From Minisyncoccota bacterium (GTDB lineage: Bacteria; Patescibacteriota; Minisyncoccia; Phycocordibacterales; UBA2100): DNA of 25,816 nucleotides. Location: the NCBI GenBank assembly GCA_036516595.1, contig DATECE010000090.1, forward strand, positions 1 through 25,816, written 5' to 3'. A program made the translations under genes and the position numbers. The notes under the pieces were generated by a model. That model was given only the letters and a program-made list of their open reading frames with translations, did not search any database and had not been told where the DNA came from. Below, in pieces: positions 1 through 14,548 of this stretch (the stretch's first letter is position 1; every line of letters begins with the position of its first letter).

Positions 1-735
1 CCCATCGGCGGGACTGCCTGCCCGCAAGATGCCATGCTCTGTCCCGACGGCTCATGGGCAGAACGCTCTGGTCCCAGCTGTGAATTCATATGCCTCGGTA
101 CATCGAGTGACGGAGTGCGGGGCATGATGGGCAACTTTGGCAATTTCGGGAGCATCGTTCAGCTTGGTGTCACGAGGACCGACGATGGCATGCGCAACCG
201 TGGTTTTATTTCTAACATCTTCGACGTGGATTCGTGGCTCGGTGGAGGGAGAAACGTCATAGTCGATGATCGCGTGAGTGTTGCCGTAGAGCCGGCGTGC
301 TTCGGGGCGTTTCCGGATACTTCATCGAGGGGCTGGCTCTCCATTTTCTTCTCGCGACTGCAAAACATTCTCGGGCTGTGCGTCGATTCGGGCAACTACG
401 GAGATGTCATCGATGATGGCAATGACGATGACATTTTCACGACCGGCGACGAGACATTTAATGCCAGCCCGACAGCTGGCAATGCGCCGCTTCTTGTCCG
501 CTTCAGCTCATCGCTCACTGAACCTGCCCAGTATTCCGTAAATTTCGGCGACGGAGAGAGCGCTCGCTACAAAATCTGTGCGGAGTCGTACCCGTATCAA
601 TGTTCGCTCTCACATACGTACAGATTGCCCGGCACGTACACCGCGCAGCTCTCGCGCAGTCTTTGTCCGCAAAACGCCGAGGGATGTCTTGCGCCAGAGA
701 TGCTCGTCGCGTCGATCACGATTAGGGTCCGGTAG
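1..735 (+). CDS. 5'-truncated secreted/surface protein with a C-x-x-D-A-x-x-C-P-D-G-S...GP-x-C-E-F Cys motif and a C-terminal PKD-like domain
   Basis: Frame 1 is open from base 1 (PIGGTACPQDAMLCPDGSWAERSGPSCEFIC), so the ATG at 34 is probably internal. The C-terminal YSVNFGDGESA...LSHTYRLPGTYTAQL matches the PKD signature (WDFGDG...HTY..PG.Y). Confidence 0.7.
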   Translation, partial: PIGGTACPQDAMLCPDGSWAERSGPSCEFICLGTSSDGVRGMMGNFGNFGSIVQLGVTRTDDGMRNRGFISNIFDVDSWLGGGRNVIVDDRVSVAVEPACFGAFPDTSSRGWLSIFFSRLQNILGLCVDSGNYGDVIDDGNDDDIFTTGDETFNASPTAGNAPLLVRFSSSLTEPAQYSVNFGDGESARYKICAESYPYQCSLSHTYRLPGTYTAQLSRSLCPQNAEGCLAPEMLVASITIRVR

Positions 736-4959: not shown

Positions 4960-5676
4960 ATGAAACTTCCTTCAAACGCACACATCGAACTGCACACTGG
5001 CTCGCTCACCTCTCAGCAGAATTGGCTGCGCGCAGGAGTCCTCGGTGCCAACGACGGCATCGTCTCGGTTGCCGCGCTCATCGTCGGCGTCGCCGGCGCG
5101 ACCGCTGATATCAAACTCATTCTCATCACTGGCGTCGCCGGCATGACGGCAGGGGCACTCTCAATGGCAGCGGGGGAATACGTGTCGGTCTCGAGCCAGC
5201 GCGACACAGAAAGAGCGCTCCTCGAAAAAGAGCGCCGTGAACTCGCCGAATCTCCGGCCGAAGAGCTCGAAGAGCTCACGGTCATATACGAAAAGAAGGG
5301 GCTCGCACGCCCGACGGCCGAGACGGTCGCGAGAGAACTCACCGCGCACGATGCGTTTACTGCACACGTCGAAGCCGAGCTCGGCATCCATGCACACGAT
5401 TTGACCAACCCGTGGCATGCGGCCATCGCGTCGGGCTTTTCATTTGTTGTCGGTGCGTTCATTCCGCTGGCTGCCATCATCATCTCACCTCCGGCGCTGC
5501 ATATACCGGCGACTTTTATCGGCGTCATCATCGCGCTCGCTATCACCGGATACCTGAGCGCACGGGTGAGCGATGCCCCACCCACTAAGGTAGTGACGCG
5601 AGTGGTAATAGGTGGCGCTATCGCGATGGCGATCACCTACGGCATCGGTACCGCTTTCGGCATCGCGACGGCATAA
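4960..5676 (+). CDS. VIT1/CCC1 family Fe/Mn transporter
   Basis: NWLRAGVLGANDGIVS, AGALSMAAGEYVSVSSQRD and NPWHAAIASGFSF motifs with five hydrophobic segments. Confidence 0.93.
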   Translation: MKLPSNAHIELHTGSLTSQQNWLRAGVLGANDGIVSVAALIVGVAGATADIKLILITGVAGMTAGALSMAAGEYVSVSSQRDTERALLEKERRELAESPAEELEELTVIYEKKGLARPTAETVARELTAHDAFTAHVEAELGIHAHDLTNPWHAAIASGFSFVVGAFIPLAAIIISPPALHIPATFIGVIIALAITGYLSARVSDAPPTKVVTRVVIGGAIAMAITYGIGTAFGIATA

Positions 5677-5678
5677 TA

Positions 5679-5707
5679 TTGACGACGACCCGAATATAGG
5701 GTACAAT
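5679..5707 (+). promoter_or_regulatory. sigma70-type promoter
   Basis: TTGACG (5679-5684), 17 bp, TACAAT (5702-5707). GGAGG at 5726-5730 precedes the ATG at 5737. Confidence 0.65.
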
Positions 5708-5736
5708 ATACGCAGCTTAATGGCGGGAGGAATGCC

Positions 5737-5997
5737 ATGTCAAACGCTTCGGTTAGCGTCGCTCAGTTCATTCGAACGATCTTCTATCACCTGCTCGGCT
5801 TCGCCGCGTTCGTCTTCGGCGCACTTCCGGTGATAGCGCTCCTGCTCGCCGCGCTCTGGAGTTGGCAGGCGGGCATGGTCCCGCAGCTTTCGCTCGAGAA
5901 CATCATCGTGATCTCGATATTCACGCTCGTGATGCTCCTGTGCGCCGGCTGTCTCGGCGTGAGGGCGTATATGAAGCGGCGATGGGGGCACCTATAA
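5737..5997 (+). CDS. Small two-TM hypothetical membrane protein
   Basis: 86-aa ORF with two hydrophobic helices, own promoter, SD and downstream terminator. Confidence 0.7.
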   Translation: MSNASVSVAQFIRTIFYHLLGFAAFVFGALPVIALLLAALWSWQAGMVPQLSLENIIVISIFTLVMLLCAGCLGVRAYMKRRWGHL

Positions 5998-6019
5998 GCC
6001 GAGCCCAGTTTTCAGTTTC

Positions 6020-6050
6020 GCGGCCATCTTCGGGTGGCCGCAACTTTTTT
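6020..6050 (+). terminator. Rho-independent terminator
   Basis: gcggccatc, TTCG loop, ggtggccgc (one G-U pair), then aactttttt. Confidence 0.65.
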
Positions 6051-6111
6051 GTATCCGTATTGCGTTTTGGCGGCCCATAGTGCATACTCCACCCGTTCCT
6101 TTCAAAACGGT

Positions 6112-6507
6112 ATGGCAGAAACAAGTACAGCGTCCACCAAAGGCGGATCCGCCTCCGGCGGAAAAAAGCGCACATCACGCGCGAAGAAGTCTGCAGAGGG
6201 CACACACCGCCTTCGTATCCGCGTGCGCGCATACGAGCACGGGGTGCTCGACCGCGCGGTGAAGCAAATCATCGATGTCGCGTCACGTCACAATGCGACC
6301 ATCATCGGCCCCGTACCGCTCCCCATCGATATCAAGAAATACACGGTCAATCGCGCGTCGTTTATCGACAAGGATTCGCGTGAACAGTTCGAGATGCGCA
6401 TCCACAAGCGCATGATAGATATTTTGAATCCGGTCCCCAAGGTGATTGAAGCTCTGACAAATATAGACCTCCCTTCCGGAGTGTCGATAGATGTCAAAAT
6501 GATGTAG
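6112..6507 (+). CDS. rpsJ: 30S ribosomal protein S10, with N-terminal extension
   Basis: RLRIRVRAYEHGVLD...IIGPVPLP...VNRASFIDKDSREQFEMRIHKRMIDI...LPSGVSIDVKM. The ATG at 6112 is preferred over the ORF-track start at 6034. Confidence 0.97.
   Translation: MAETSTASTKGGSASGGKKRTSRAKKSAEGTHRLRIRVRAYEHGVLDRAVKQIIDVASRHNATIIGPVPLPIDIKKYTVNRASFIDKDSREQFEMRIHKRMIDILNPVPKVIEALTNIDLPSGVSIDVKMM
6133..6162. repeat. 30-bp double-hairpin palindromic element, in-frame copy in rpsJ (encodes STKGGSASGG)
   Basis: TCCACCAAAGGCGGATCCGCCTCCGGCGGA, matching the copies in rplC, rplD, rplV and rplW. Confidence 0.85.
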
Positions 6508-6528
6508 ATTTTTTACGAATCCCAATTC

Positions 6529-6558
6529 AAAAAAGCCCGCTCGTAAGCGGGTTTTTTT
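6529..6558. terminator. Bidirectional Rho-independent terminator after rpsJ
   Basis: aaaaaa, gcccgct, cgta loop, agcgggt, tttttt, between convergent rpsJ and the ArsR-family gene. Confidence 0.85.
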
Positions 6559-6592
6559 GCTACGGGTACGGAAAAAGAAGTCGGGACTCGCC

Positions 6593-6895
6593 TTATCCGG
6601 CTCGTGACAGCTTGTACAAAATCCGGCACGGTTCGACGATGCGCGGATCCACAATAGCGTAGTATGCATTCAACCCGTCGCGACGAACTGTCACGAGTCG
6701 CTCTCTGCGCAGTATGCCGAGGTGCTGCGATACATTTGCCTTCGAGATTCCCAATGTTTTCACGAGATCCTGTACCGCCATCTCCTGCTCCCGCAGAAGA
6801 TTCAATATCTCGAGGCGCTTCGGGTTCGCCAGTATTTTGTACGTCTCCGCGTTCCTTTCATATGCCGAGCGGGGGAGCGGTCGCTTGATTTTCAT
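6593..6895 (-). CDS. ArsR/SmtB family winged-HTH transcriptional regulator
   Basis: YKILANPKRLEILNLL...VQDLVKTLGISKANVSQHLGILRRERLVTVRRDGLNAYY. Start placed at MKIKRPL (6895). Confidence 0.92.
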   Translation of the reverse strand: MKIKRPLPRSAYERNAETYKILANPKRLEILNLLREQEMAVQDLVKTLGISKANVSQHLGILRRERLVTVRRDGLNAYYAIVDPRIVEPCRILYKLSRAG

Positions 6896-6910
6896 AGTTT
6901 GAGTATGCAC

Positions 6911-7038
6911 TAGTTGCGCATGCGCGCAACCGCTTTTCGCTGAAGCACCGCGGTGACGCGCCCTTGCATCCACACTTTTCCCCACTCGCCGCTTGTGCGG
7001 ACACTCTCGTGCGATATAGTTTCTATATTGCGCAACTA
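6911..7038. promoter_or_regulatory. Divergent promoter region with paired TTGCGC(A)A operator-like sites
   Basis: TAGTTGCGCA (6911-6920) is the exact reverse complement of TGCGCAACTA (7029-7038). Local inverted repeat GTTGCGC-atgc-GCGCAAC at 6913-6930. Candidate -10 boxes are CATACT (minus, 6907-6902) and TATAGT (plus, 7015-7020). Confidence 0.45.
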
Positions 7039-7053
7039 CGAAACAGATAGCGT

Positions 7054-7254
7054 ATGATACAAAAGTCGATAAAGATACTCCGTTACTCTGTCATGTGCAC
7101 GGCTGCGTTCCTTGCATCGTTTGTAGTCAATTTCTCGTCACCCGCGCACAATTCTACGGATATCCCGAGCATGTTCGCGCCTATCGTACATGCCGATGCG
7201 CCGACGGGGGACGGCGGTGATGACGGTGATGGCGGTAGCGACGGTTGTCCCTGA
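7054..7254 (+). CDS. Candidate RiPP precursor peptide 1 (hydrophobic leader, HADAP motif, Gly/Asp/Ser/Cys tail)
   Basis: 66 aa: basic N-terminus, hydrophobic stretch, ...IVHADAP-TGDGGDDGDGGSDGCP. It shares HADAP and overall layout with the 14322-14543 peptide next to the SagB gene. Confidence 0.7.
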   Translation: MIQKSIKILRYSVMCTAAFLASFVVNFSSPAHNSTDIPSMFAPIVHADAPTGDGGDDGDGGSDGCP

Positions 7255-7259
7255 ATTGT

Positions 7260-8477
7260 ATGGAAACGCACGACACTCCCGAGAACAACGTATCCGAAGG
7301 CGTGCGCATATGGGCCGCGCGCAAGCGGGAATACACTGCAGTCTTGGTAGTCACTCTGGTGCTCGTTTCGGTGTACCTCGGTTCGGAAGTCGCAACGAGG
7401 CAGAGGGAGCGTGCGAGAGAGGCGAATGTCGCGAATCTCAAGGGGGCGATTGAACGATCGCTCGAGTTGCAGTACCAAGGTGACTTCGGGGCATCGGCGC
7501 AAAACGCAGAGTATGCACTTGCTCTGCTCGATGCGACTTCAAGTCTAGAGGCGCAGCGAACGATAACCGTTCTCGCCAACGCACATATTTGGTCCGCCGA
7601 GCTGGACAAGCACCTTGAAGCTGTGGATCTAGCGAAACAGCAACTACGTGACCTGCCAGGATCCCCTCGAAGTCAGGCATTTATCATAAATCGTCTCATC
7701 GGGTATATGACGGCGGCGATGGAGCCCGAGGTCATCGAGAGGGTGTTCACAGGCGAACCCTTCGCAGAACTCTACGATTCAGCGAGCGTCACGGACTCCA
7801 TTTTCAAGAACTTGGCAGGGGAGTCTCTTTCGCGATACCCCACCTTCCTCGCATATGCGTGCGTCGGCATTTGGCACGCCGAGAAGTTGTTCAAGCATTA
7901 CGATGGCATCGAGACTCTCTCGCAGGAAGAGATGCGCGAGGCTGTCTCGGGAGTGCAAGACGCTATTGCGAAAATGAACGGCATCATAGACGAGGAGTTG
8001 AAAGTAGATATCGTATACAAGCAAACAAGGCAAGCGCAATTCGATTACTATCAAGAGTTCCTCCACGGGGCGCTCGCGCTCACAGACCCAGCGTACCTTA
8101 CTGCGATGCAGGAAGCATACGAGCGTGTGCGTTCTGAGGTCGCGGCACAAAAAAATACCGCGGGCAACACGATAGCGCTCCTTGATACGCGCCTCGTATA
8201 CGCCGATTTCGCCTTCTCCACGTATGTAAACGCCGTCGCAGGCGAAAACCGTGCGAATGACGTACAGAGATCTCTGCAGGAGATGATCGACCTCATGACG
8301 GCGAATCCGGAGGCGCATCAGGGTGGCTTTCTTGCGTTCGTGCGTCAAACCGCGCGGAGCGGTCCGAACGGCACAGAGGGGCACGGACGCTGGTACAGCT
8401 ATGGGCGATTTAAGCGCATGGCAGATTTCTACCCACCGTTTAAAGATTTTCTTAATGCCAACGGATGGGGTCTGTAA
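7260..8477 (+). CDS. Single-pass membrane-anchored alpha-helical (TPR-like) hypothetical protein A, paralog of 14549-15670
   Basis: N-terminal TM (AVLVVTLVLVSVYLG) and helical composition. Colinear motif matches to protein B. Start METHDT at 7260, 5 nt after the peptide-1 stop. Confidence 0.8.
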   Translation: METHDTPENNVSEGVRIWAARKREYTAVLVVTLVLVSVYLGSEVATRQRERAREANVANLKGAIERSLELQYQGDFGASAQNAEYALALLDATSSLEAQRTITVLANAHIWSAELDKHLEAVDLAKQQLRDLPGSPRSQAFIINRLIGYMTAAMEPEVIERVFTGEPFAELYDSASVTDSIFKNLAGESLSRYPTFLAYACVGIWHAEKLFKHYDGIETLSQEEMREAVSGVQDAIAKMNGIIDEELKVDIVYKQTRQAQFDYYQEFLHGALALTDPAYLTAMQEAYERVRSEVAAQKNTAGNTIALLDTRLVYADFAFSTYVNAVAGENRANDVQRSLQEMIDLMTANPEAHQGGFLAFVRQTARSGPNGTEGHGRWYSYGRFKRMADFYPPFKDFLNANGWGL

Positions 8478-8522
8478 TGCCCGAAGCCTCTCTGCATATC
8501 GCTGTCGACCCGCTCACGAACA

Positions 8523-10268
8523 TCAAATAATTTTCTCGAGGCAGTAGATTTCGTTGGCGTAGGTGCTTAGAAAAAATCGTCCCGTTTTCGCGTTGTGGAA
8601 GACCCGATTTGTGATTCGTTCAGGCACGGTGAAGTAAGAGCGCTCTTTGCCCGTCTGCGGGTCAATCTCTGTGAGTCTGCCAGCGTTCGTGCCGATATAG
8701 AGACTGCCGTCGATGTGCACAGGCGTCGAGAAAATGCGAGCGTTTCCGTGCCAGCGCCACTGTTCGGTGTACGCATTGGCATCGATTGAATATAGATGCT
8801 TATCGAGTGAGGACACGAAGACATTCTCGCCGACGACAAGGGGAGTCGAATACACACCGAAATCGGTCTTGAAGAAACCATTTCGTATGCCGCGACGTCT
8901 ATCGATAAAATGCACCTCCCCGAGCATATTCCCAAAGATGACCTGATCACGTTTCTTGTCATATGCAAAGGAAGCTTTGATGTCGCCGTCGCAAAAACCC
9001 GAGTCGAGCGCGGGACCGGAAGGCGTGTAGCTCTCGTACTTCCATTTCAGCACGCCGCTTTGCGCATCGAAAAGATAAGCTGCACCGTCATTCGAACCGA
9101 TGATTACCTCGCGGTGCTCGCGGATGTAGAGCGGCGAAGAGTGTGTAAGGCTCGGCATAGTGTAACGCCACTTCGCCTCACCGGAATATGCGTCGAGCGC
9201 GATGATGCCGCCGCGCTTCCGCCACAAGCCAAACTCGAGCCCGATGTATACAAGCCCGAGATCATCCGCGACGGTGGGGGACGAGCCGACCCAGTCTGCT
9301 TCGAAAGACACCCAGCGTTTTTTGCCGTTTGTCACATCGAGCGCGTAGATGTTGCCGTCATAGGCGCCGAAATACACCATGTCACCGTAGAGGGCGGGCG
9401 AAGAAAAGATTCCTTTGCCGTGTGGGTGCAGACCCGTCTTGAACTCCCACTCGACGCGACCATCGGCTTGGTTAAGCGCGCGAAAGATTCCGCTGTCGGA
9501 ACCGACATAGAGACGTGTCTCGTCGAACGCGGGTTCCGATTTCGGCACCACGTGAAAATAGCTTGGCGCGGGCGCACTAAATCTCCAGAGCGTTTTATAG
9601 GCCTGTTTTGCGGAGGGAGTATCTTTGCGGGGCAGATTGTTCACTCCGAGCGCCTCTGAGAAGTCATTGAGCTCGAACGCCGAGCGCACCTCGACGCCTT
9701 CTTTTGCGAAGTACTCGTAGTATTCGGTATCTCGGAAACGCACGATGGCCCAGATAGCGGAAACTGTTTTGCCGGATTCTTTCAACACTTCAATTTGACG
9801 GATAAAGCTTCGGCCGCTGTTGAGGATGTCATCCACGAGCACGACGGGACTGTTGTCGGTGGCGTCGCCCTCAACCATTTTCATGAGCCCGGACTTTTTT
9901 CTCGATTTGCGGATGAAAAAACCGTTTGGTTTTCGCGGACCGCCGTGTTTTGCGGATAGGAGCACGAGAGCAGTGGCGAGCGGAATTCCACCAGATTCGA
10001 GACAGCCGATTTGTACGTCGTGATAGCCGTGAAATGTATCCCAAAAAATGGCGGCAGCATCATCAAGAATGTCTATATCGAAGAGTATGTTCCGGAGATC
10101 GAAAAGCCACTTTGATTCTTTTGTGTCGTCGCTTCTACTCACGATCTCCGCATCTGTCCCGCGCACAAAAGCACGCTCAGCAATCGCGCGCTTGATTCTC
10201 TCGAGGCGCTTCAGGCGCTCGCTGCTGTCCATGCGCCCAGTATACTCGTCCATTTCATGCGGAGTCAT
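8523..10268 (-). CDS. Fusion of an orotate-phosphoribosyltransferase-like type I PRTase and a PQQ-like (BamB-type) beta-propeller
   Basis: N-terminal IGCLESGGIPLA, FFIRKSRKKSG and VVLVDDILNSGRS (PRPP loop). C-terminal repeats such as SSPALYGDMVYFGAYDGNIYALDVTNGKKRW and GGIIALDAYSGEAKWRY. Confidence 0.85.
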   Translation of the reverse strand: MTPHEMDEYTGRMDSSERLKRLERIKRAIAERAFVRGTDAEIVSRSDDTKESKWLFDLRNILFDIDILDDAAAIFWDTFHGYHDVQIGCLESGGIPLATALVLLSAKHGGPRKPNGFFIRKSRKKSGLMKMVEGDATDNSPVVLVDDILNSGRSFIRQIEVLKESGKTVSAIWAIVRFRDTEYYEYFAKEGVEVRSAFELNDFSEALGVNNLPRKDTPSAKQAYKTLWRFSAPAPSYFHVVPKSEPAFDETRLYVGSDSGIFRALNQADGRVEWEFKTGLHPHGKGIFSSPALYGDMVYFGAYDGNIYALDVTNGKKRWVSFEADWVGSSPTVADDLGLVYIGLEFGLWRKRGGIIALDAYSGEAKWRYTMPSLTHSSPLYIREHREVIIGSNDGAAYLFDAQSGVLKWKYESYTPSGPALDSGFCDGDIKASFAYDKKRDQVIFGNMLGEVHFIDRRRGIRNGFFKTDFGVYSTPLVVGENVFVSSLDKHLYSIDANAYTEQWRWHGNARIFSTPVHIDGSLYIGTNAGRLTEIDPQTGKERSYFTVPERITNRVFHNAKTGRFFLSTYANEIYCLEKII

Positions 10269-10294
10269 GTCGTCAGTCGGCGCTCCGGCATCCC

Positions 10295-10323
10295 TTCACA
10301 TTGACTTCCGGTTGATTCATAAT
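10295..10323 (+). promoter_or_regulatory. sigma70-type promoter for the small Cys-rich peptide gene
   Basis: TTCACA (10295-10300), 17 bp, CATAAT (10318-10323). GAGGGAG RBS-like run lies before the ATG at 10382. Confidence 0.5.
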
Positions 10324-10381
10324 GCGTGGAGCTGGTCGCTGCGAAATCTCGCGGCGGGCTCGCTCAGAGGGAGTTATCCTG

Positions 10382-10591
10382 ATGCGCATCTTTGCCGTGG
10401 CTCTCATCGCAGGCGTTGTCCTCTCCTCGTTTGCGGCGCACGCTGCGCCGGCGAAGAAGGCGACACCCGCTCGAAGCGCAAACGCTGAATGTGTCGGCGG
10501 GAAATACGAAACCTGCGAGAGTCACTGGAGAAATCTGGGGTGGGCTACTCGCGAGCGTACTGCCTATTGCGGTCGCGTTTGCGGGAAGTAG
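10382..10591 (+). CDS. Small secreted basic peptide with 4 Cys
   Basis: MRIFAVALIAGVVLSSFAAHA signal peptide, then APAKKATPARSANAECVGGKYETCESHWRNLGWATRERTAYCGRVCGK. Flanked by promoter, RBS and terminator. Confidence 0.7.
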   Translation: MRIFAVALIAGVVLSSFAAHAAPAKKATPARSANAECVGGKYETCESHWRNLGWATRERTAYCGRVCGK

Positions 10592-10607
10592 AGGCCCGCG
10601 ACAATAT

Positions 10608-10643
10608 ATCTCCGCGACCAGTGCGTCGCGGAGATCGATTTTT
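10608..10643 (+). terminator. Rho-independent terminator
   Basis: 11-bp stem atctccgcgac / gtcgcggagat, followed by cgattttt. Confidence 0.65.
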
Positions 10644-10678
10644 AACAGGTGAAGTGCGCACGCCGTCCGAGGACCTAA

Positions 10679-11914
10679 TCACTCCCATCGGTCCCCGAAG
10701 AGTCCGAAGCGGTAATCAGGCAAGTCCGATTTGATGTCGCGGAAGGTGCGGTAGTTTTCCGCACAGACAGGATTTTCCCCACAGCGCGCGAGCAAACTCT
10801 CTTCAAAAAGCTGCCCAACGAACTGGAACACGTTGTAGTAGCAGATAGCGCGGCGATTTTTTTCTTCAATGCCGCTGCAATATGGCAGCGGGTCGTCTTT
10901 CAGAAAGGGAAAGAGCGGGATGATGCCGATAGTGCACGATGTTCGATCCTCAAAGAGTGGCAATTCGTCGCAGAGCGCGTGCAAAGCAGGTGCATCGTCA
11001 AGGCGGGTACCGTATGAGAATGATTGGAGACCGTATCCCTCGAAACAGAACGCACGTCGCTCTCCCGAAAGTGCAGTGCATTGTTCCCGCGCGGTGTCTT
11101 TACGCTGAGCAGAATCATCAGTAGCCGCATATGCGGAGGCAAAGTGAAAACACGCGTGACTGTAGCGCATCGGTGCGCTCTCGCAGGGGAAGAAGGTACT
11201 CGCTGTCACAGTGCCGGTCGCGCTTTGAAATGGGGAGAGCGCATCGGTCCAGCCGGTCATCTCCCCTGCGCGCTCCATGTAGACGCCCTGATAGCAGGCT
11301 TCTCGGGCATAACCGCTCGATACGCGTGCACATGTCGCGATTCCTTGTGGATCCTCTCCCTTCACGAGGTAGAGAATGTGACCGATGCCGTGGCAAAGTC
11401 CTGCACTCGAGGCACAATATTTCGATCCGATTTCTTCGATTGTCGCGATGTCCGCGTGGGCGATGTCCTCGTCAGGGTATTCCTCACCGAGTTCCGCGAG
11501 CACGCCGGCGCCGAGCGTACCGTGGAGGCAGGCCGCACGACACGCATTTGAGCACGCGGAAAGCGCGATTTCTAAAGCGCCCGCTTTTTTAAAATTTTCC
11601 TGTCCGATGATATGTCCGATAGCGTGGCATCGGTCGCGTATCGGCGCCGGCGTCGATTCCGCAACCGTATATGCCTGCAATGTCTTGGTGGACATATACG
11701 AAAGCAATTGCGGGATTGTTTCGTGGAGACATGCGGACGTTGTAGCAGGGTCTTCGAGGCACGAAAGCAGCGCTTCGGGCGATGGCGGTGCGGTGAAATA
11801 GGCGTAGAGACGCTCCGAAGTAGAGCCGAGCGCGTACGCCCCCCCAAATACGATGAGTGCGATGGATACTATGTGTATATAGGAGCGAAGCGGCGCATTC
11901 GATACAGCATTCAT
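10679..11914 (-). CDS. Membrane-anchored Cys/His-rich helical-repeat protein (CHxxGH motifs), function unknown
   Basis: N-terminal TM, 20 Cys counted, motifs RCHAIGHIIG, ACLHG, LCHGIGH and ACYQGVYME. TATAAT on the minus strand at 11929-11924 lies just upstream of the ATG. Confidence 0.8.
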   Translation of the reverse strand: MNAVSNAPLRSYIHIVSIALIVFGGAYALGSTSERLYAYFTAPPSPEALLSCLEDPATTSACLHETIPQLLSYMSTKTLQAYTVAESTPAPIRDRCHAIGHIIGQENFKKAGALEIALSACSNACRAACLHGTLGAGVLAELGEEYPDEDIAHADIATIEEIGSKYCASSAGLCHGIGHILYLVKGEDPQGIATCARVSSGYAREACYQGVYMERAGEMTGWTDALSPFQSATGTVTASTFFPCESAPMRYSHACFHFASAYAATDDSAQRKDTAREQCTALSGERRAFCFEGYGLQSFSYGTRLDDAPALHALCDELPLFEDRTSCTIGIIPLFPFLKDDPLPYCSGIEEKNRRAICYYNVFQFVGQLFEESLLARCGENPVCAENYRTFRDIKSDLPDYRFGLFGDRWE

Positions 11915-11962
11915 GTGATGTCGATTATACTCGGCCCCTCTCGGATGGCGAGCGGCGGGTGG

Positions 11963-13492
11963 TCAGGGGAAGGGATGAGGCCACGGGACGAAGTGTTCTG
12001 CTGGCGTATAGCCGAGCGTACGCGCGGCTTCTCGTAATCGCGTCGCACCAAGCGCTGGCAGGTGCTCGAACAGGTACAGAGGGATGAGACGCGGAACGAT
12101 GGTCTTTACCACGTGATAACCCAGCTCTCGGAGGACCTCGTGCTGCACTTCGTAGACGTACACTTCGTACCCAGCGCCTTTCTCTTTGAGCTTACCGAGC
12201 ACGTACGCAAGATGCGCCTCCGCCGAATCGTCCACCTGTATTGTGCGCGCAAACGTCTCGATGGACACGGCCCTTCCTTGGAGAAAAAAGGCGAACCGCT
12301 CAAGCATGTCCTTGCCGCGCCAAAGTGAGAGCCGTTCGCTCCGCCCGATTTTCTTGTCGGAAAAAGGTTTGTATTCCTTAGGGAGTCGGAACTGCTCAAG
12401 TTGAAGGGATGTGGTCAAGACTGCGAGCGCTTCGTATCCCGCATGCAGCATATTTCCCTCGGCGTCAATCCCCGCGGACGCGCCCATTGCGAGCACGGGA
12501 TCGTTGGCACGTGGGTCGATTATGACGCACAGAGCGGTAGGGATGCCGATGTCCGAGGTGATGTCGAGAAAATGCGCCTCGAGACCGTATCGCTCTGTAG
12601 CCGCGAGAAACTTGAACAACTCGGTATTTCGAGCGGAGCGCGCATCGATTCGATTCGGCGCGATGCCGTTCAGCCAGTAAATAAGAAAGCCGTCACGCTC
12701 GATGAGTTCGAGCAATCCAGAGAGTACCGCTTCCTTTTTTGTGAAGTGACCGCCCGCCCCACTCGTCGTTGTGTTGAGCAATACGGGCTCTTCCATATCG
12801 CGCGAGAAATCGTAATTCCAAAAGACCATCTGTGCCGGCACATGCACGACACCCCCGTCCATGCGCTCTGCAGTCACCCACGAAAATGGAGAGGAAGGAG
12901 AGACGTGCAAGCGCGGATTCGCCTCCACCTGCCATGGCAAGAACGTACTCTGCTCCGAGACATCGAGTACGGGTGAACCTGCGGCGCGCATTTCTGTACT
13001 CGTCATGCGTGGGAGCTTTTCGTTTCGGTAGAGCGTGAGGAAATGCCGCTCGAGCGCCTCACCGACGGATTTCGACATCGCAGTTTCCACAGAATGCGAG
13101 TGCGAAAATCCACCACCTTTTACATCGAGCCCGTCCGTGTCACGTTCGCGGTTTGTCTCGAGCCCGATTTGCCAGAACTTCGGAAGATCGTTATTGCTCT
13201 TAGCGAACCGGAAGTTCGGCGAGACGACGACGTTCTTTTTTTCTAGATATCGCAAAATCGCTTGCCAATTGAGTGGAACACCACTCGCGATGACCTGTGT
13301 CACGTTGTCCAAGAGGTCGACATTTGACATCTTTCCAGCGAGAAAAAGCCCGAGCCGCTCTTCAATACCGAGAGGATTTTTGAACCTTGAACACGGGCGG
13401 CCAAGCTCGGCGAGGGCCTCTCTTTTCGAGCGGTTGATATACGGTGGAAAGGCGAGAAAAGGCTGGTGCTGCAGCGTTTCTTCGAGGAGCAT
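11963..13492 (-). CDS. ycaO: YcaO-family ATP-dependent cyclodehydratase (azoline-forming type)
   Basis: SKSVGEALER, TTTSGAGGHFTKKEAVLSGLLELIERDGF (YcaO ATP-binding motif) and C-terminal PWPHPFP. Start placed at MLLEETL (13492), because the longer track ORF overlaps the SagB gene on the opposite strand. Confidence 0.95.
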   Translation of the reverse strand: MLLEETLQHQPFLAFPPYINRSKREALAELGRPCSRFKNPLGIEERLGLFLAGKMSNVDLLDNVTQVIASGVPLNWQAILRYLEKKNVVVSPNFRFAKSNNDLPKFWQIGLETNRERDTDGLDVKGGGFSHSHSVETAMSKSVGEALERHFLTLYRNEKLPRMTSTEMRAAGSPVLDVSEQSTFLPWQVEANPRLHVSPSSPFSWVTAERMDGGVVHVPAQMVFWNYDFSRDMEEPVLLNTTTSGAGGHFTKKEAVLSGLLELIERDGFLIYWLNGIAPNRIDARSARNTELFKFLAATERYGLEAHFLDITSDIGIPTALCVIIDPRANDPVLAMGASAGIDAEGNMLHAGYEALAVLTTSLQLEQFRLPKEYKPFSDKKIGRSERLSLWRGKDMLERFAFFLQGRAVSIETFARTIQVDDSAEAHLAYVLGKLKEKGAGYEVYVYEVQHEVLRELGYHVVKTIVPRLIPLYLFEHLPALGATRLREAARTLGYTPAEHFVPWPHPFP

Positions 13493-13551
13493 GCCGGCAG
13501 TATACCCCAAGCGATATTTGCTGACGGTGTGATCGGTTGTACGATGCCGAT
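13493..13551. promoter_or_regulatory. 59-bp back-to-back promoter region for ycaO and the SagB-type gene
   Basis: Minus strand: TATACT (13504-13499), 6 nt before the ycaO ATG. Plus strand: TTGCTG (13518-13523), 16 bp, TACGAT (13540-13545), 6 nt before the ATG at 13552. Confidence 0.5.
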
Positions 13552-14325
13552 ATGTATGTTGATTTCTCGGCGCTCTTCCACGCATCTTCAAAAGATTTGA
13601 ACGACAAGGGGCGTGTTTATATCCCACAAGATGCGAGCGCATGGCCGGACGAATGGAAAACGACCTACTACAAATCATATGCGCGCTCCCCGAAGATCCA
13701 GCTCGAGAAGCCTCGTGCGCTCGGGATGACGTTGGACGATATACTGAAAAAGAGGATTTCGACGAGGTCGTTTGCAGGCACACCGGTCGACCTGAAGGCG
13801 CTCTCAGGACTCCTATTTCACTCATGCGGCATCTCAAACGGAGAAAATCATGAGTGGGGGCGCATGTACCCGTCGGGAGGCGCTCGATTTCCCATCGAGA
13901 TATATCCAATCGTATTTGTCGGAGGAAAAGATATTCCGGCTGGCCTTTACCACTACAATGTGAAAGAGCACGCACTAGACGTTTTATGGAAGCGAGCATT
14001 CTCGAAAAAAGAGATTGACGAAATGTTTGTGTATCCGTGGGTAGAGCATGCGTCATTCGCAATCATCATGACCGCGGTTTTTGGCCGCAACCAGATGAAA
14101 TACGGTGAGCGCGGATACCGCTACGTACTGCTCGAGGCGGGGCACATGAGTGAGAATGTGTATTTGGCGGCGACGGCACTCGGTGTTGGATGCTGTGCAA
14201 TGGGTGGGACGCAGGACAAGCAGATTGAGCGGCTGCTCGACATTGATGGTATTACAGAATCTGTTATTCACAGCTTGGTCCTCGGCGAAGTGGGGTCGGC
14301 AAAACGTGCTATTATTCCCGCATGA
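13552..14325 (+). CDS. SagB/ThcOx-family FMN-dependent azoline dehydrogenase (nitroreductase fold)
   Basis: KKRISTRSF, RMYPSGGARFPIEIY, GLYHYNVKEHAL, MKYGERGYRYVLLEAGHMSENVYLAATALG. The KYGERGYRY segment is typical of azole-forming dehydrogenases. Confidence 0.93.
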   Translation: MYVDFSALFHASSKDLNDKGRVYIPQDASAWPDEWKTTYYKSYARSPKIQLEKPRALGMTLDDILKKRISTRSFAGTPVDLKALSGLLFHSCGISNGENHEWGRMYPSGGARFPIEIYPIVFVGGKDIPAGLYHYNVKEHALDVLWKRAFSKKEIDEMFVYPWVEHASFAIIMTAVFGRNQMKYGERGYRYVLLEAGHMSENVYLAATALGVGCCAMGGTQDKQIERLLDIDGITESVIHSLVLGEVGSAKRAIIPA

Positions 14326-14543
14326 TGGTGCACATGCAAGAGTCGTCACGACGCACCGTTCGCTACGTGCTGTACGGGATTGTCGCGGTCCTCGGCTTTA
14401 TCATCGCGTTCTTCGGCTCTGTGCCGCGCAGCGGCTCCCAATTGTTCGGTGAAGATGCTTCGGGTGCAAATACGGCGCACGCGGACGCGCCCGATGCTGG
14501 CAGCTCCCCCGGCACAGGAGGTACGGGAAGTACAGGAAGCTAG
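14322..14543 (+). CDS. Candidate RiPP precursor peptide 2 (TM leader, AHADAP motif, Gly/Ser/Thr core)
   Basis: ATGA overlap with the SagB stop. TM YVLYGIVAVLGFIIAFFG, then ...TAHADAP-DAGSSPGTGGTGSTGS. The start could also be the Met at 14325 or 14334. Confidence 0.75.
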   Translation: MMVHMQESSRRTVRYVLYGIVAVLGFIIAFFGSVPRSGSQLFGEDASGANTAHADAPDAGSSPGTGGTGSTGS

Positions 14544-14548
14544 CGATT

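Follow-up and report, generated by a model that had tools for sequence, protein, structure and literature searches.

A candidate azol(in)e peptide precursor family with a membrane-type leader and its own TPR-like partner, encoded beside YcaO and SagB genes in Candidatus Kaiserbacteria-like bacteria

The window analysed here is the complete 25,816 bp contig DATECE010000090.1 from the 628-kb, 99-contig genome of a Minisyncoccota bacterium, a member of the Candidate Phyla Radiation (CPR). It carries genes for a YcaO cyclodehydratase and a SagB-type FMN dehydrogenase and, overlapping the end of the latter, an open reading frame (ORF) of 73 codons whose product we refer to as PEP2 (Table 1). We consider it likely that PEP2 is a precursor of the linear azol(in)e-containing peptide (LAP) or thiazole/oxazole-modified microcin (TOMM) type, acted upon by the neighbouring YcaO and SagB and equipped with a new class of leader, and we infer that its tail is modified, exported by Sec and cleaved at an A-x-A site. 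On the same reading, and with the same degree of assurance, it is one of a family of precursors not described before, which has its centre in a Candidatus Kaiserbacteria-like genus within the CPR.

The ATG of PEP2 (14322–14324) and the TGA of SagB (14323–14325) overlap as ATGA, and the frame closes with a TAG at 14541–14543. Within the product, a basic N-terminus is followed by a 17-residue hydrophobic stretch, VLYGIVAVLGFIIAFFG, with a Kyte–Doolittle (KD) value of 2.45 in a 19-residue window and an approximate insertion energy of -1.1 kcal/mol. A spacer of 19 residues, counting T51, then separates the helix from the motif and the Gly-rich tail. A sequence-only reading of this frame had listed the ATGA overlap, the hydrophobic helix, the spacer, TAHADAP and a tail with four Ser and three Thr, and all of these are present as described. 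HADAP occurs four times in a six-frame scan of the 628-kb genome, and the helix, spacer and tail layout is found at two of these occurrences, both on this contig; it was this motif scan that revealed the paralogous peptide 1, the tail of which equals that of PEP2 in length.

Table 1. Genes and PEP2 segments in the window, numbered from its first base
Feature	Position	Strand	Remarks
Precursor peptide 2 (PEP2)	14322..14543	+	73 aa; leader-profile E 3e-17 to 8e-24
PEP2 basic N-terminal segment, residues 1-15	14322..14366	+	R10, R11, R14; predicted cytoplasmic
PEP2 hydrophobic helix, residues 16-32, with Gly25-Phe26	14367..14417	+	KD 2.45
PEP2 spacer, residues 33-50, poorly conserved	14418..14471	+	0.6-0.8 bits per column
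PEP2 T-A-H-A-D-A-P motif, residues 51-57	14472..14492	+	putative cleavage/recognition site, A-x-A before D
PEP2 core tail DAGSSPGTGGTGSTGS, residues 58-73	14493..14540	+	4 Ser, 3 Thr, 6 Gly, no Cys
SagB-type FMN dehydrogenase, 257 aa	13552..14325	+	TIGR03605 142.5 bits vs cut-off 78.4
YcaO cyclodehydratase, 509 aa	11963..13492	-	PF02624 E 3.8e-45; TIGR03604 188 bits; C-terminal PHPFP
HP-b, membrane-anchored TPR-like solenoid, 373 aa	14549..15670	+	starts 5 nt past PEP2 stop
Paralogous precursor peptide 1	7054..7254	+	IVHADAP and acidic Gly/Asp tail, one Cys; leader-profile E 1.6e-22
HP-a, TPR-like partner of peptide 1, HP-b family	7260..8477	+	5 nt past peptide 1
Membrane-anchored TPR protein, 264 aa	15674..16468	+	Pfam TPR families; 50 relatives in fetched loci
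Cys-rich envelope protein, 679 aa	16477..18516	+	41 relatives, always downstream of TPR gene
Small protein, 122 aa; signal peptide and C-terminal hydrophobic anchor	18520..18888	+	last gene before rplC
PRTase-like domain fused to PQQ-type beta-propeller	8523..10268	-	next to SagB/YcaO in relatives; 41 relatives in fetched loci
Membrane-anchored Cys/His-rich protein, 411 aa	10679..11914	-	22 relatives, in a subset of clusters; no Pfam/NCBIfam match

A word-indexed protein search with the 73-residue PEP2 query returned only PEP2 itself and one strain variant, and Pfam and NCBIfam contain no model covering the family; scans of 48 members against both brought up nothing beyond low-complexity noise (MSCRAMM Ser-Asp repeats, YxzE and a metallothionein family). 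The profile search that the sequence-only reading had suggested was run with the leader, against 116 species genomes of one Candidatus Kaiserbacteria-like genus, and gave about 30 matches at E < 1e-4. Searching again, by profile and by inspection, in the 54 loci fetched around all YcaO genes of the genus brought the family to about 55 members, in which a conserved leader precedes a hypervariable core rich in Cys, Ser and Gly. The same synteny recurs around members in four other families of the order, one member lies on a contig labelled Saccharibacteria, and 185 clusters match at E ≤ 1e-3 among 1.84 billion protein representatives, nearly all of them 58–156 residues long with the leader at the N-terminus. 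No family member was found in 400 genomes sampled across the phylum, and the range of the family is narrow. Because the leader profile recovers about 55 relatives in the same genus together with those in other families and the 185 clusters, ORF 14322–14543 is a genuine gene and not a chance frame; the concern that the ORF might not be conserved is answered by these homologues, which lie in other species and share its layout. In several groundwater and soil metagenomes, 20 contigs also carry a call for the identical 73-residue product, with gene order unchanged in all, and relative to a strain at about 95% DNA identity the leader has five synonymous and three non-synonymous changes.

Family members are built alike, with a basic N-terminus, one hydrophobic helix, a spacer of 14–26 residues (median 20), the motif [V/I]-A-x-A-[D/E]-[A/V]-P and a core. 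Column conservation peaks at V-A-H-A-D-A-P and at the mid-helix Gly25-Phe26 (G in 43 and F in 38 of 49 leaders), and the spacer columns are barely conserved (0.6–0.8 bits). Numbered from the putative cleavage site, the motif has Ala at -3 in 46 of 52 members and at -1 in 51 of 52, Asp or Glu at +1 in all 52 and Pro at +3 in 39; position -2 is free, and is occupied by H, Y, Q, R, N, L, F, S or T. The cores, which are hypervariable between species, have a median length of 42 residues and a composition dominated by Gly (32%), Ser (16%), Asp (13%), Cys (11%) and Ala (10%), and they are acidic, with a median net charge of -6. We considered whether A-x-A-D-x-P might be a general sorting signal and rejected this because it is missing from the N-termini of the module's other membrane proteins, being present in only 0–1 members per family. 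A 1272-residue protein with 22 matches (P0003) is likewise set aside as an unrelated repeat protein in which AQADAP occurs by chance. Two members, one at 4–570 (-) of locus L084 and the other protein P0030, have an additional conserved domain of about 110 residues (…ICTE[LM][YF]RQG[RK]L…WYEAD…) after the Gly/Cys-rich core, such that the 'core' is an internal linker and not a C-terminal tail. Species G009 (locus L100, 3136–3940, -) has two tandem peptide genes with identical leaders and differing Cys-rich cores, and a single TPR-like gene behind them.

The genes next to the peptides tie the family to YcaO and SagB. The distance from peptide to YcaO, determined for 53 peptides, is at most 300 bp in 33, at most 1.5 kb in 39 and at most 5 kb in 46. 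YcaO is encoded by 46 of the 116 genomes of the genus and SagB by 45, the two genes being nearly always side by side. All 25 genomes with a peptide match at E ≤ 1e-4 carry YcaO, as compared with 46/116 genus-wide, a comparison that points clearly in one direction but, with related genomes not being independent, does not amount to a formal test. The prospect that homologues occur mostly without YcaO and SagB, which would speak against a role as their substrate, is not borne out for YcaO among the strong matches. The sequence-only reading had the coupling of SagB to PEP2 right, but the arrangement it implied for YcaO was not, as that gene occupies the minus strand and diverges from SagB on the plus strand. 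None of the other cases among the 53 shows the overlap of SagB with the peptide gene found in this window; as a rule it is a divergent YcaO gene that adjoins the peptide. A small ORF next to YcaO and dehydrogenase genes, and a conserved leader followed by a hypervariable core with Cys, Ser and Thr often placed after Gly, are what LAP/TOMM precursors present, and both are found here. The proposal that PEP2 is the YcaO/SagB substrate is strongly supported by comparative context: adjacency to YcaO in dozens of species, the leader/core pattern, near-confinement to YcaO-positive genomes and the catalytic hallmarks of the enzymes.

These hallmarks include, for YcaO, the ATP/Mg-binding residues and the C-terminal PxPxP, and for the FMN dehydrogenase the K-Y pair. 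An alignment of 47 YcaO proteins has E145, E148 and R149 of the ExxER motif invariant, together with several other residues; conservation of the C-terminal P-H-P-F reaches 90% or more, and PxP closes the sequence in 57 of 60 proteins. In the SagB family the K-Y pair, which we take to be the catalytic pair of the dehydrogenase, is kept as Lys in 52 and Tyr in 53 of 54 proteins, and the R-x-x-P-S-G-G motif in 52–53 of 54. Both enzymes look competent as judged from these residues, and neither has a signal sequence. An AlphaFold model of YcaO (pLDDT 92.5) is closest to LynD, MusD and TruD, followed by archaeal thioamidating YcaOs, E. coli YcaO and McbD. Prediction of a complex of YcaO (509 aa) with peptide residues 31–73 gave a score of 0.00, which counts neither for nor against binding.

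The view of the PEP2 leader as membrane-type, taken by the sequence-only reading, holds for the family as a whole. Lys and Arg residues number 3.1 on average before the helix and 1.24 after it, the N-terminal side being the higher in 46 of 50 members, and the mid-helix Gly-Phe is conserved; the median KD value of the family helices is 2.17, that of PEP2 being 2.45. Because of the positive-inside rule, this bias predicts that the peptides are oriented N-in/C-out, with the core outside the cell. That Sec and signal peptidase I could stand in for a dedicated exporter and protease, as was also proposed, is upheld in part. The peptides have a charged n-region followed by an h-region, and Ala at -3 and -1, with position -2 free. 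In the conserved module, no dedicated exporter or protease is found by Pfam and NCBIfam or among the relatives in the fetched loci, and the genome encodes a signal peptidase I (TIGR02227, 133 bits, contig C16). The position of the site does not fit, as the c-region between h-region and cleavage site is usually about 3–7 residues long, and the 14–26 residues separating helix and motif are atypical for signal peptidase I. Generic signal peptides are moreover without specific conserved helix residues; because this helix does carry such residues, helix–helix contact and possibly permanent anchoring are suggested, which counts against the Sec/signal-peptidase idea. A side observation that supports that idea comes from the 122-residue protein of the module, which has an ordinary signal peptide ending in SHTAHA, followed by ETD; the T-A-H-A context is that of the peptide motif. 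In a 2023 review of the proteases that act on the leaders of RiPPs (ribosomally synthesised and post-translationally modified peptides), signal peptidase is nowhere named (PMC10885120).

The second frequent companion of the peptides is the HP gene, encoding a protein of about 400 residues with an N-terminal membrane helix, which lies directly downstream, within 150 bp, of 46 of the 53 peptides. HP genes that seemed to be without a peptide nearly all proved to have one with a variant motif (A-N-A-D, A-S-A-D or A-F-A-D). The two HP proteins of the window are not significantly similar by BLASTP, and their kinship emerged only in iterated profile searches; jackhmmer searches started from HP-a and from HP-b gave 55 hits each with 54 members in common, showing that they belong to one family. 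HP evolves fast, with a mean column identity of 21% as compared with 32% for YcaO. The model of HP-b (pLDDT 94.7) consists of an N-terminal membrane helix and an all-alpha TPR-like solenoid, for which the peptide-binding TPR proteins Tom70, LGN, PEX5 and NprR are look-alikes with modest TM-scores; two uncharacterised AlphaFold DB clusters match it more closely. There is no enzyme signature in HP. The charge bias across its helix favours the N-terminal side in 19 proteins, is equal in 23 and favours the C-terminal side in 12, and an N-in orientation is hinted at by a conserved Arg or Lys immediately ahead of the helix. Because each hypervariable core has an HP of its own, the natural inference is a core-specific binding role as receptor, immunity, docking or chaperone protein.

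A number of our findings weigh against PEP2 as a modified precursor, and several of them point to another explanation, in which PEP2 is an unmodified small membrane-anchored or secreted peptide, acidic and Gly-rich, whose true partner is the TPR-like protein, and YcaO and SagB are mere neighbours or have another substrate. The peptides pair more tightly with the TPR-like gene (46/53) than with YcaO (33/53 within 300 bp), and orphan peptide–HP pairs exist several kilobases from the enzymes, such as that at 7054–8477 in the window. In the 97%-complete genome G078, a peptide–TPR pair at 5556–7014 of locus L102 (contig C1) occurs without any YcaO or SagB, and is either a remnant or a pair that works without modification; its core is Cys-free, and Cys/His-rich and PRTase-propeller genes are also there. 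The TPR look-alikes include peptide receptors such as NprR. At 16–19 residues the core of PEP2 is shortest in the family, and it contains no Cys; in the same strain at about 95% identity (L011: 677–874, +) the tail after AHAD is unrelated and shorter, reading DPPAANLTPA. That tail lies at the end of an 883-bp contig that stops 9 nt later and is to be read with care; the divergence could be real core hypervariability or an assembly artefact. PEP2 is an atypical copy in the family, its core being the shortest and offering only Ser and Thr and its tail not being shared by a sister strain, and it could be a weak or decaying substrate. In addition, Pfam and NCBIfam show in the module no E1-like, Ocin-ThiF or RiPP recognition element (RRE) domain of the kind that binds the leader in LAP pathways, and the N-terminal 105 residues of YcaO are predicted to have a confident fold, but one that does not follow the RRE strand–helix order. 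We nevertheless regard an unmodified peptide as unlikely, since YcaO is present in 25/25 strong-match genomes as against 40% of the genus, the peptide gene directly adjoins YcaO in most loci, hypervariable Cys/Ser/Gly-rich cores after a conserved leader are the pattern of RiPPs, and no other candidate substrate is conserved in the module.

YcaO enzymes catalyse reactions of several types, and PEP2 could be a YcaO substrate in which a backbone thioamide, an amidine or a macrocycle is formed and not an azole. The solved YcaO closest by sequence is an archaeal, thioamidating one, the PEP2 core offers no Cys, and no E1-like partner is found in the module by Pfam and NCBIfam. Other chemistry nonetheless appears decidedly improbable to us, as nearly every cluster joins to YcaO a SagB whose K-Y pair is intact, Pfam and NCBIfam revealed no TfuA gene in the module, the C-terminal PxPxP is present, and the structural model is closest to azoline-forming heterocyclases. 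That the frame is a chance, untranslated one between SagB and the next gene is scarcely credible: it is short, of low complexity and without a visible strong Shine-Dalgarno sequence, and no RNA sequencing runs containing this DNA were found, but its position, layout and specific motif are conserved across more than 50 species and the strain substitutions are mostly synonymous.

If PEP2 is an azol(in)e precursor, as we favour, its short chain would leave the ribosome before co-translational targeting is possible, and because a protein of 73 residues leaves the ribosome almost as its helix emerges, modification in the cytoplasm followed by post-translational insertion or export is plausible; it is also the simplest way to square a core outside the cell with enzymes that have no signal sequence. 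Cytoplasmic YcaO with ATP and SagB with FMN would convert Ser and Thr (and Cys in relatives) after Gly to oxazol(in)es or thiazol(in)es; the two peptides of the contig probably share a single enzyme pair. The helix would then insert N-in/C-out via Sec or YidC and place the modified acidic tail outside the cell, where it may be released by cleavage after A-x-A, by signal peptidase I or another protease, or may stay tethered, and the cognate TPR-like protein would handle it there as a receptor, immunity, docking or chaperone partner. A particular form of this proposal, which we hold to be possible but rather doubtful, is that the modified tail is a membrane-tethered or TPR-docked azol(in)e peptide on the cell surface and not a diffusible antibiotic. 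On this view the Gly-Phe helix would combine with the membrane TPR protein and the envelope proteins encoded downstream into an assembly at the cell surface, which might, for instance, bind metals or bring an episymbiotic CPR cell into contact with its host and which would be transcribed with the ribosomal S10 operon; if true, it would be the first membrane-anchored RiPP.

The conserved module has the PRTase-propeller gene, SagB and YcaO on one side and, facing them, the genes for the peptide, HP, the TPR protein and proteins of the Cys-rich 679-residue and 122-residue types. As the module is without an E1-like or RRE partner, its PRTase-propeller protein could stand in for one as a new accessory protein or one that binds the substrate. 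The 411-residue protein, encoded in a subset of clusters, has many Cys residues and repeated C-x-x-x-G-H-x-x-G motifs. Between the genes for these two proteins is a 69-residue signal-peptide ORF (10382–10591, +), called on one metagenome contig, with four Cys residues and the sequence …SSFAAHA followed by APAKK; it was considered as an alternative precursor and rejected, having no relatives in other loci. In the region 6034–19653 the whole module is flanked by rpsJ (S10) and rplC (L3). Likewise, rplC follows directly after the 122-residue-type gene in many species of the genus, with S10 on the opposite side (loci L051, L060, L061, L065, L066, L069, L071, L073, L078, L085, L086, L090 and L096). 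Because the genes from the peptide to the 122-residue protein share their direction with the ribosomal genes, they may be co-transcribed with the S10 operon.

The cluster type is not new, because YcaO/nitroreductase (LAP) clusters in CPR genomes, including 51 Parcubacteria genomes, were published in 2020 (Sharrar et al. 2020, PMC7298704); what is new is the precursor type and its cognate TPR partner. As in the module described here, the published clusters have YcaO beside a nitroreductase-type dehydrogenase and a small putative precursor adjoining YcaO, but we found in that paper no description of a membrane-type leader, an A-x-A-D-A-P motif, a TPR-like partner or a position in the S10 operon, and its example cluster, from Microgenomates, includes a peptidase, which this module lacks. 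Full-text literature searches turned up no account of membrane- or Sec-type leaders for YcaO substrates, nor of the motif or its TPR partner. The leader has an unusual, conserved architecture, which is most likely new for azole chemistry.

The description of the tail as 'microcin-B17-like' is apt as a loose likeness in composition and no further. In microcin B17 (McbA with McbBCD; PMC6722960) the core is likewise rich in Gly, a YcaO enzyme and an FMN dehydrogenase turn its Ser and Cys residues into oxazoles and thiazoles, and the precursor, at 69 residues, is close in size to the 73 of PEP2. However, McbA has a soluble 26-residue leader and depends on the E1-like McbB, TldD/E trimming and McbEF export, none of which is found here (PMC6722960), and the PEP2 core is acidic, short and without Cys. 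No McbA-like leader, McbB, TldD/E or McbEFG export/immunity functions are present in the module, and McbD is only a distant structural match. A parallel in logic is offered by the bufferins, RiPPs that undergo modification in the cytoplasm before Sec exports them (PMC11626156). They too have an N-terminal Sec-type signal, heterocycles formed in the cytoplasm, Sec export with signal-peptidase cleavage and no dedicated exporter, but are made by MNIO/DUF692 with DUF2063 enzymes and have ordinary signal peptides with short c-regions and folded cores (PMC11626156); the analogy is one of logic and not of homology. The peptide–HP pairs also recall the RRNPP cassettes such as NprR–NprX, in which a TPR-type protein of about 350–400 residues is encoded beside a small secreted-propeptide gene. 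The HP model resembles NprR weakly (TM 0.40), a likeness of generic TPR solenoids, and HP, unlike RRNPP receptors, carries a membrane helix at its N-terminus and lacks both DNA-binding and phosphatase domains.

As a rule, RiPP precursors are soluble peptides served by dedicated exporters and proteases. The family described here departs from this in its membrane-helix leader with an A-x-A site, in the membrane TPR protein that each peptide has of its own and in a module without exporter or protease. The Gly-Phe helix, the spacer and A-x-A-D-A-P provide a searchable signature with which to mine precursors missed by current tools and by Pfam and NCBIfam. If our reading is correct, the Sec-dependent logic of the bufferin type would extend to azole chemistry, and CPR bacteria with their tiny genomes would gain a cheap way to make and place a modified peptide.

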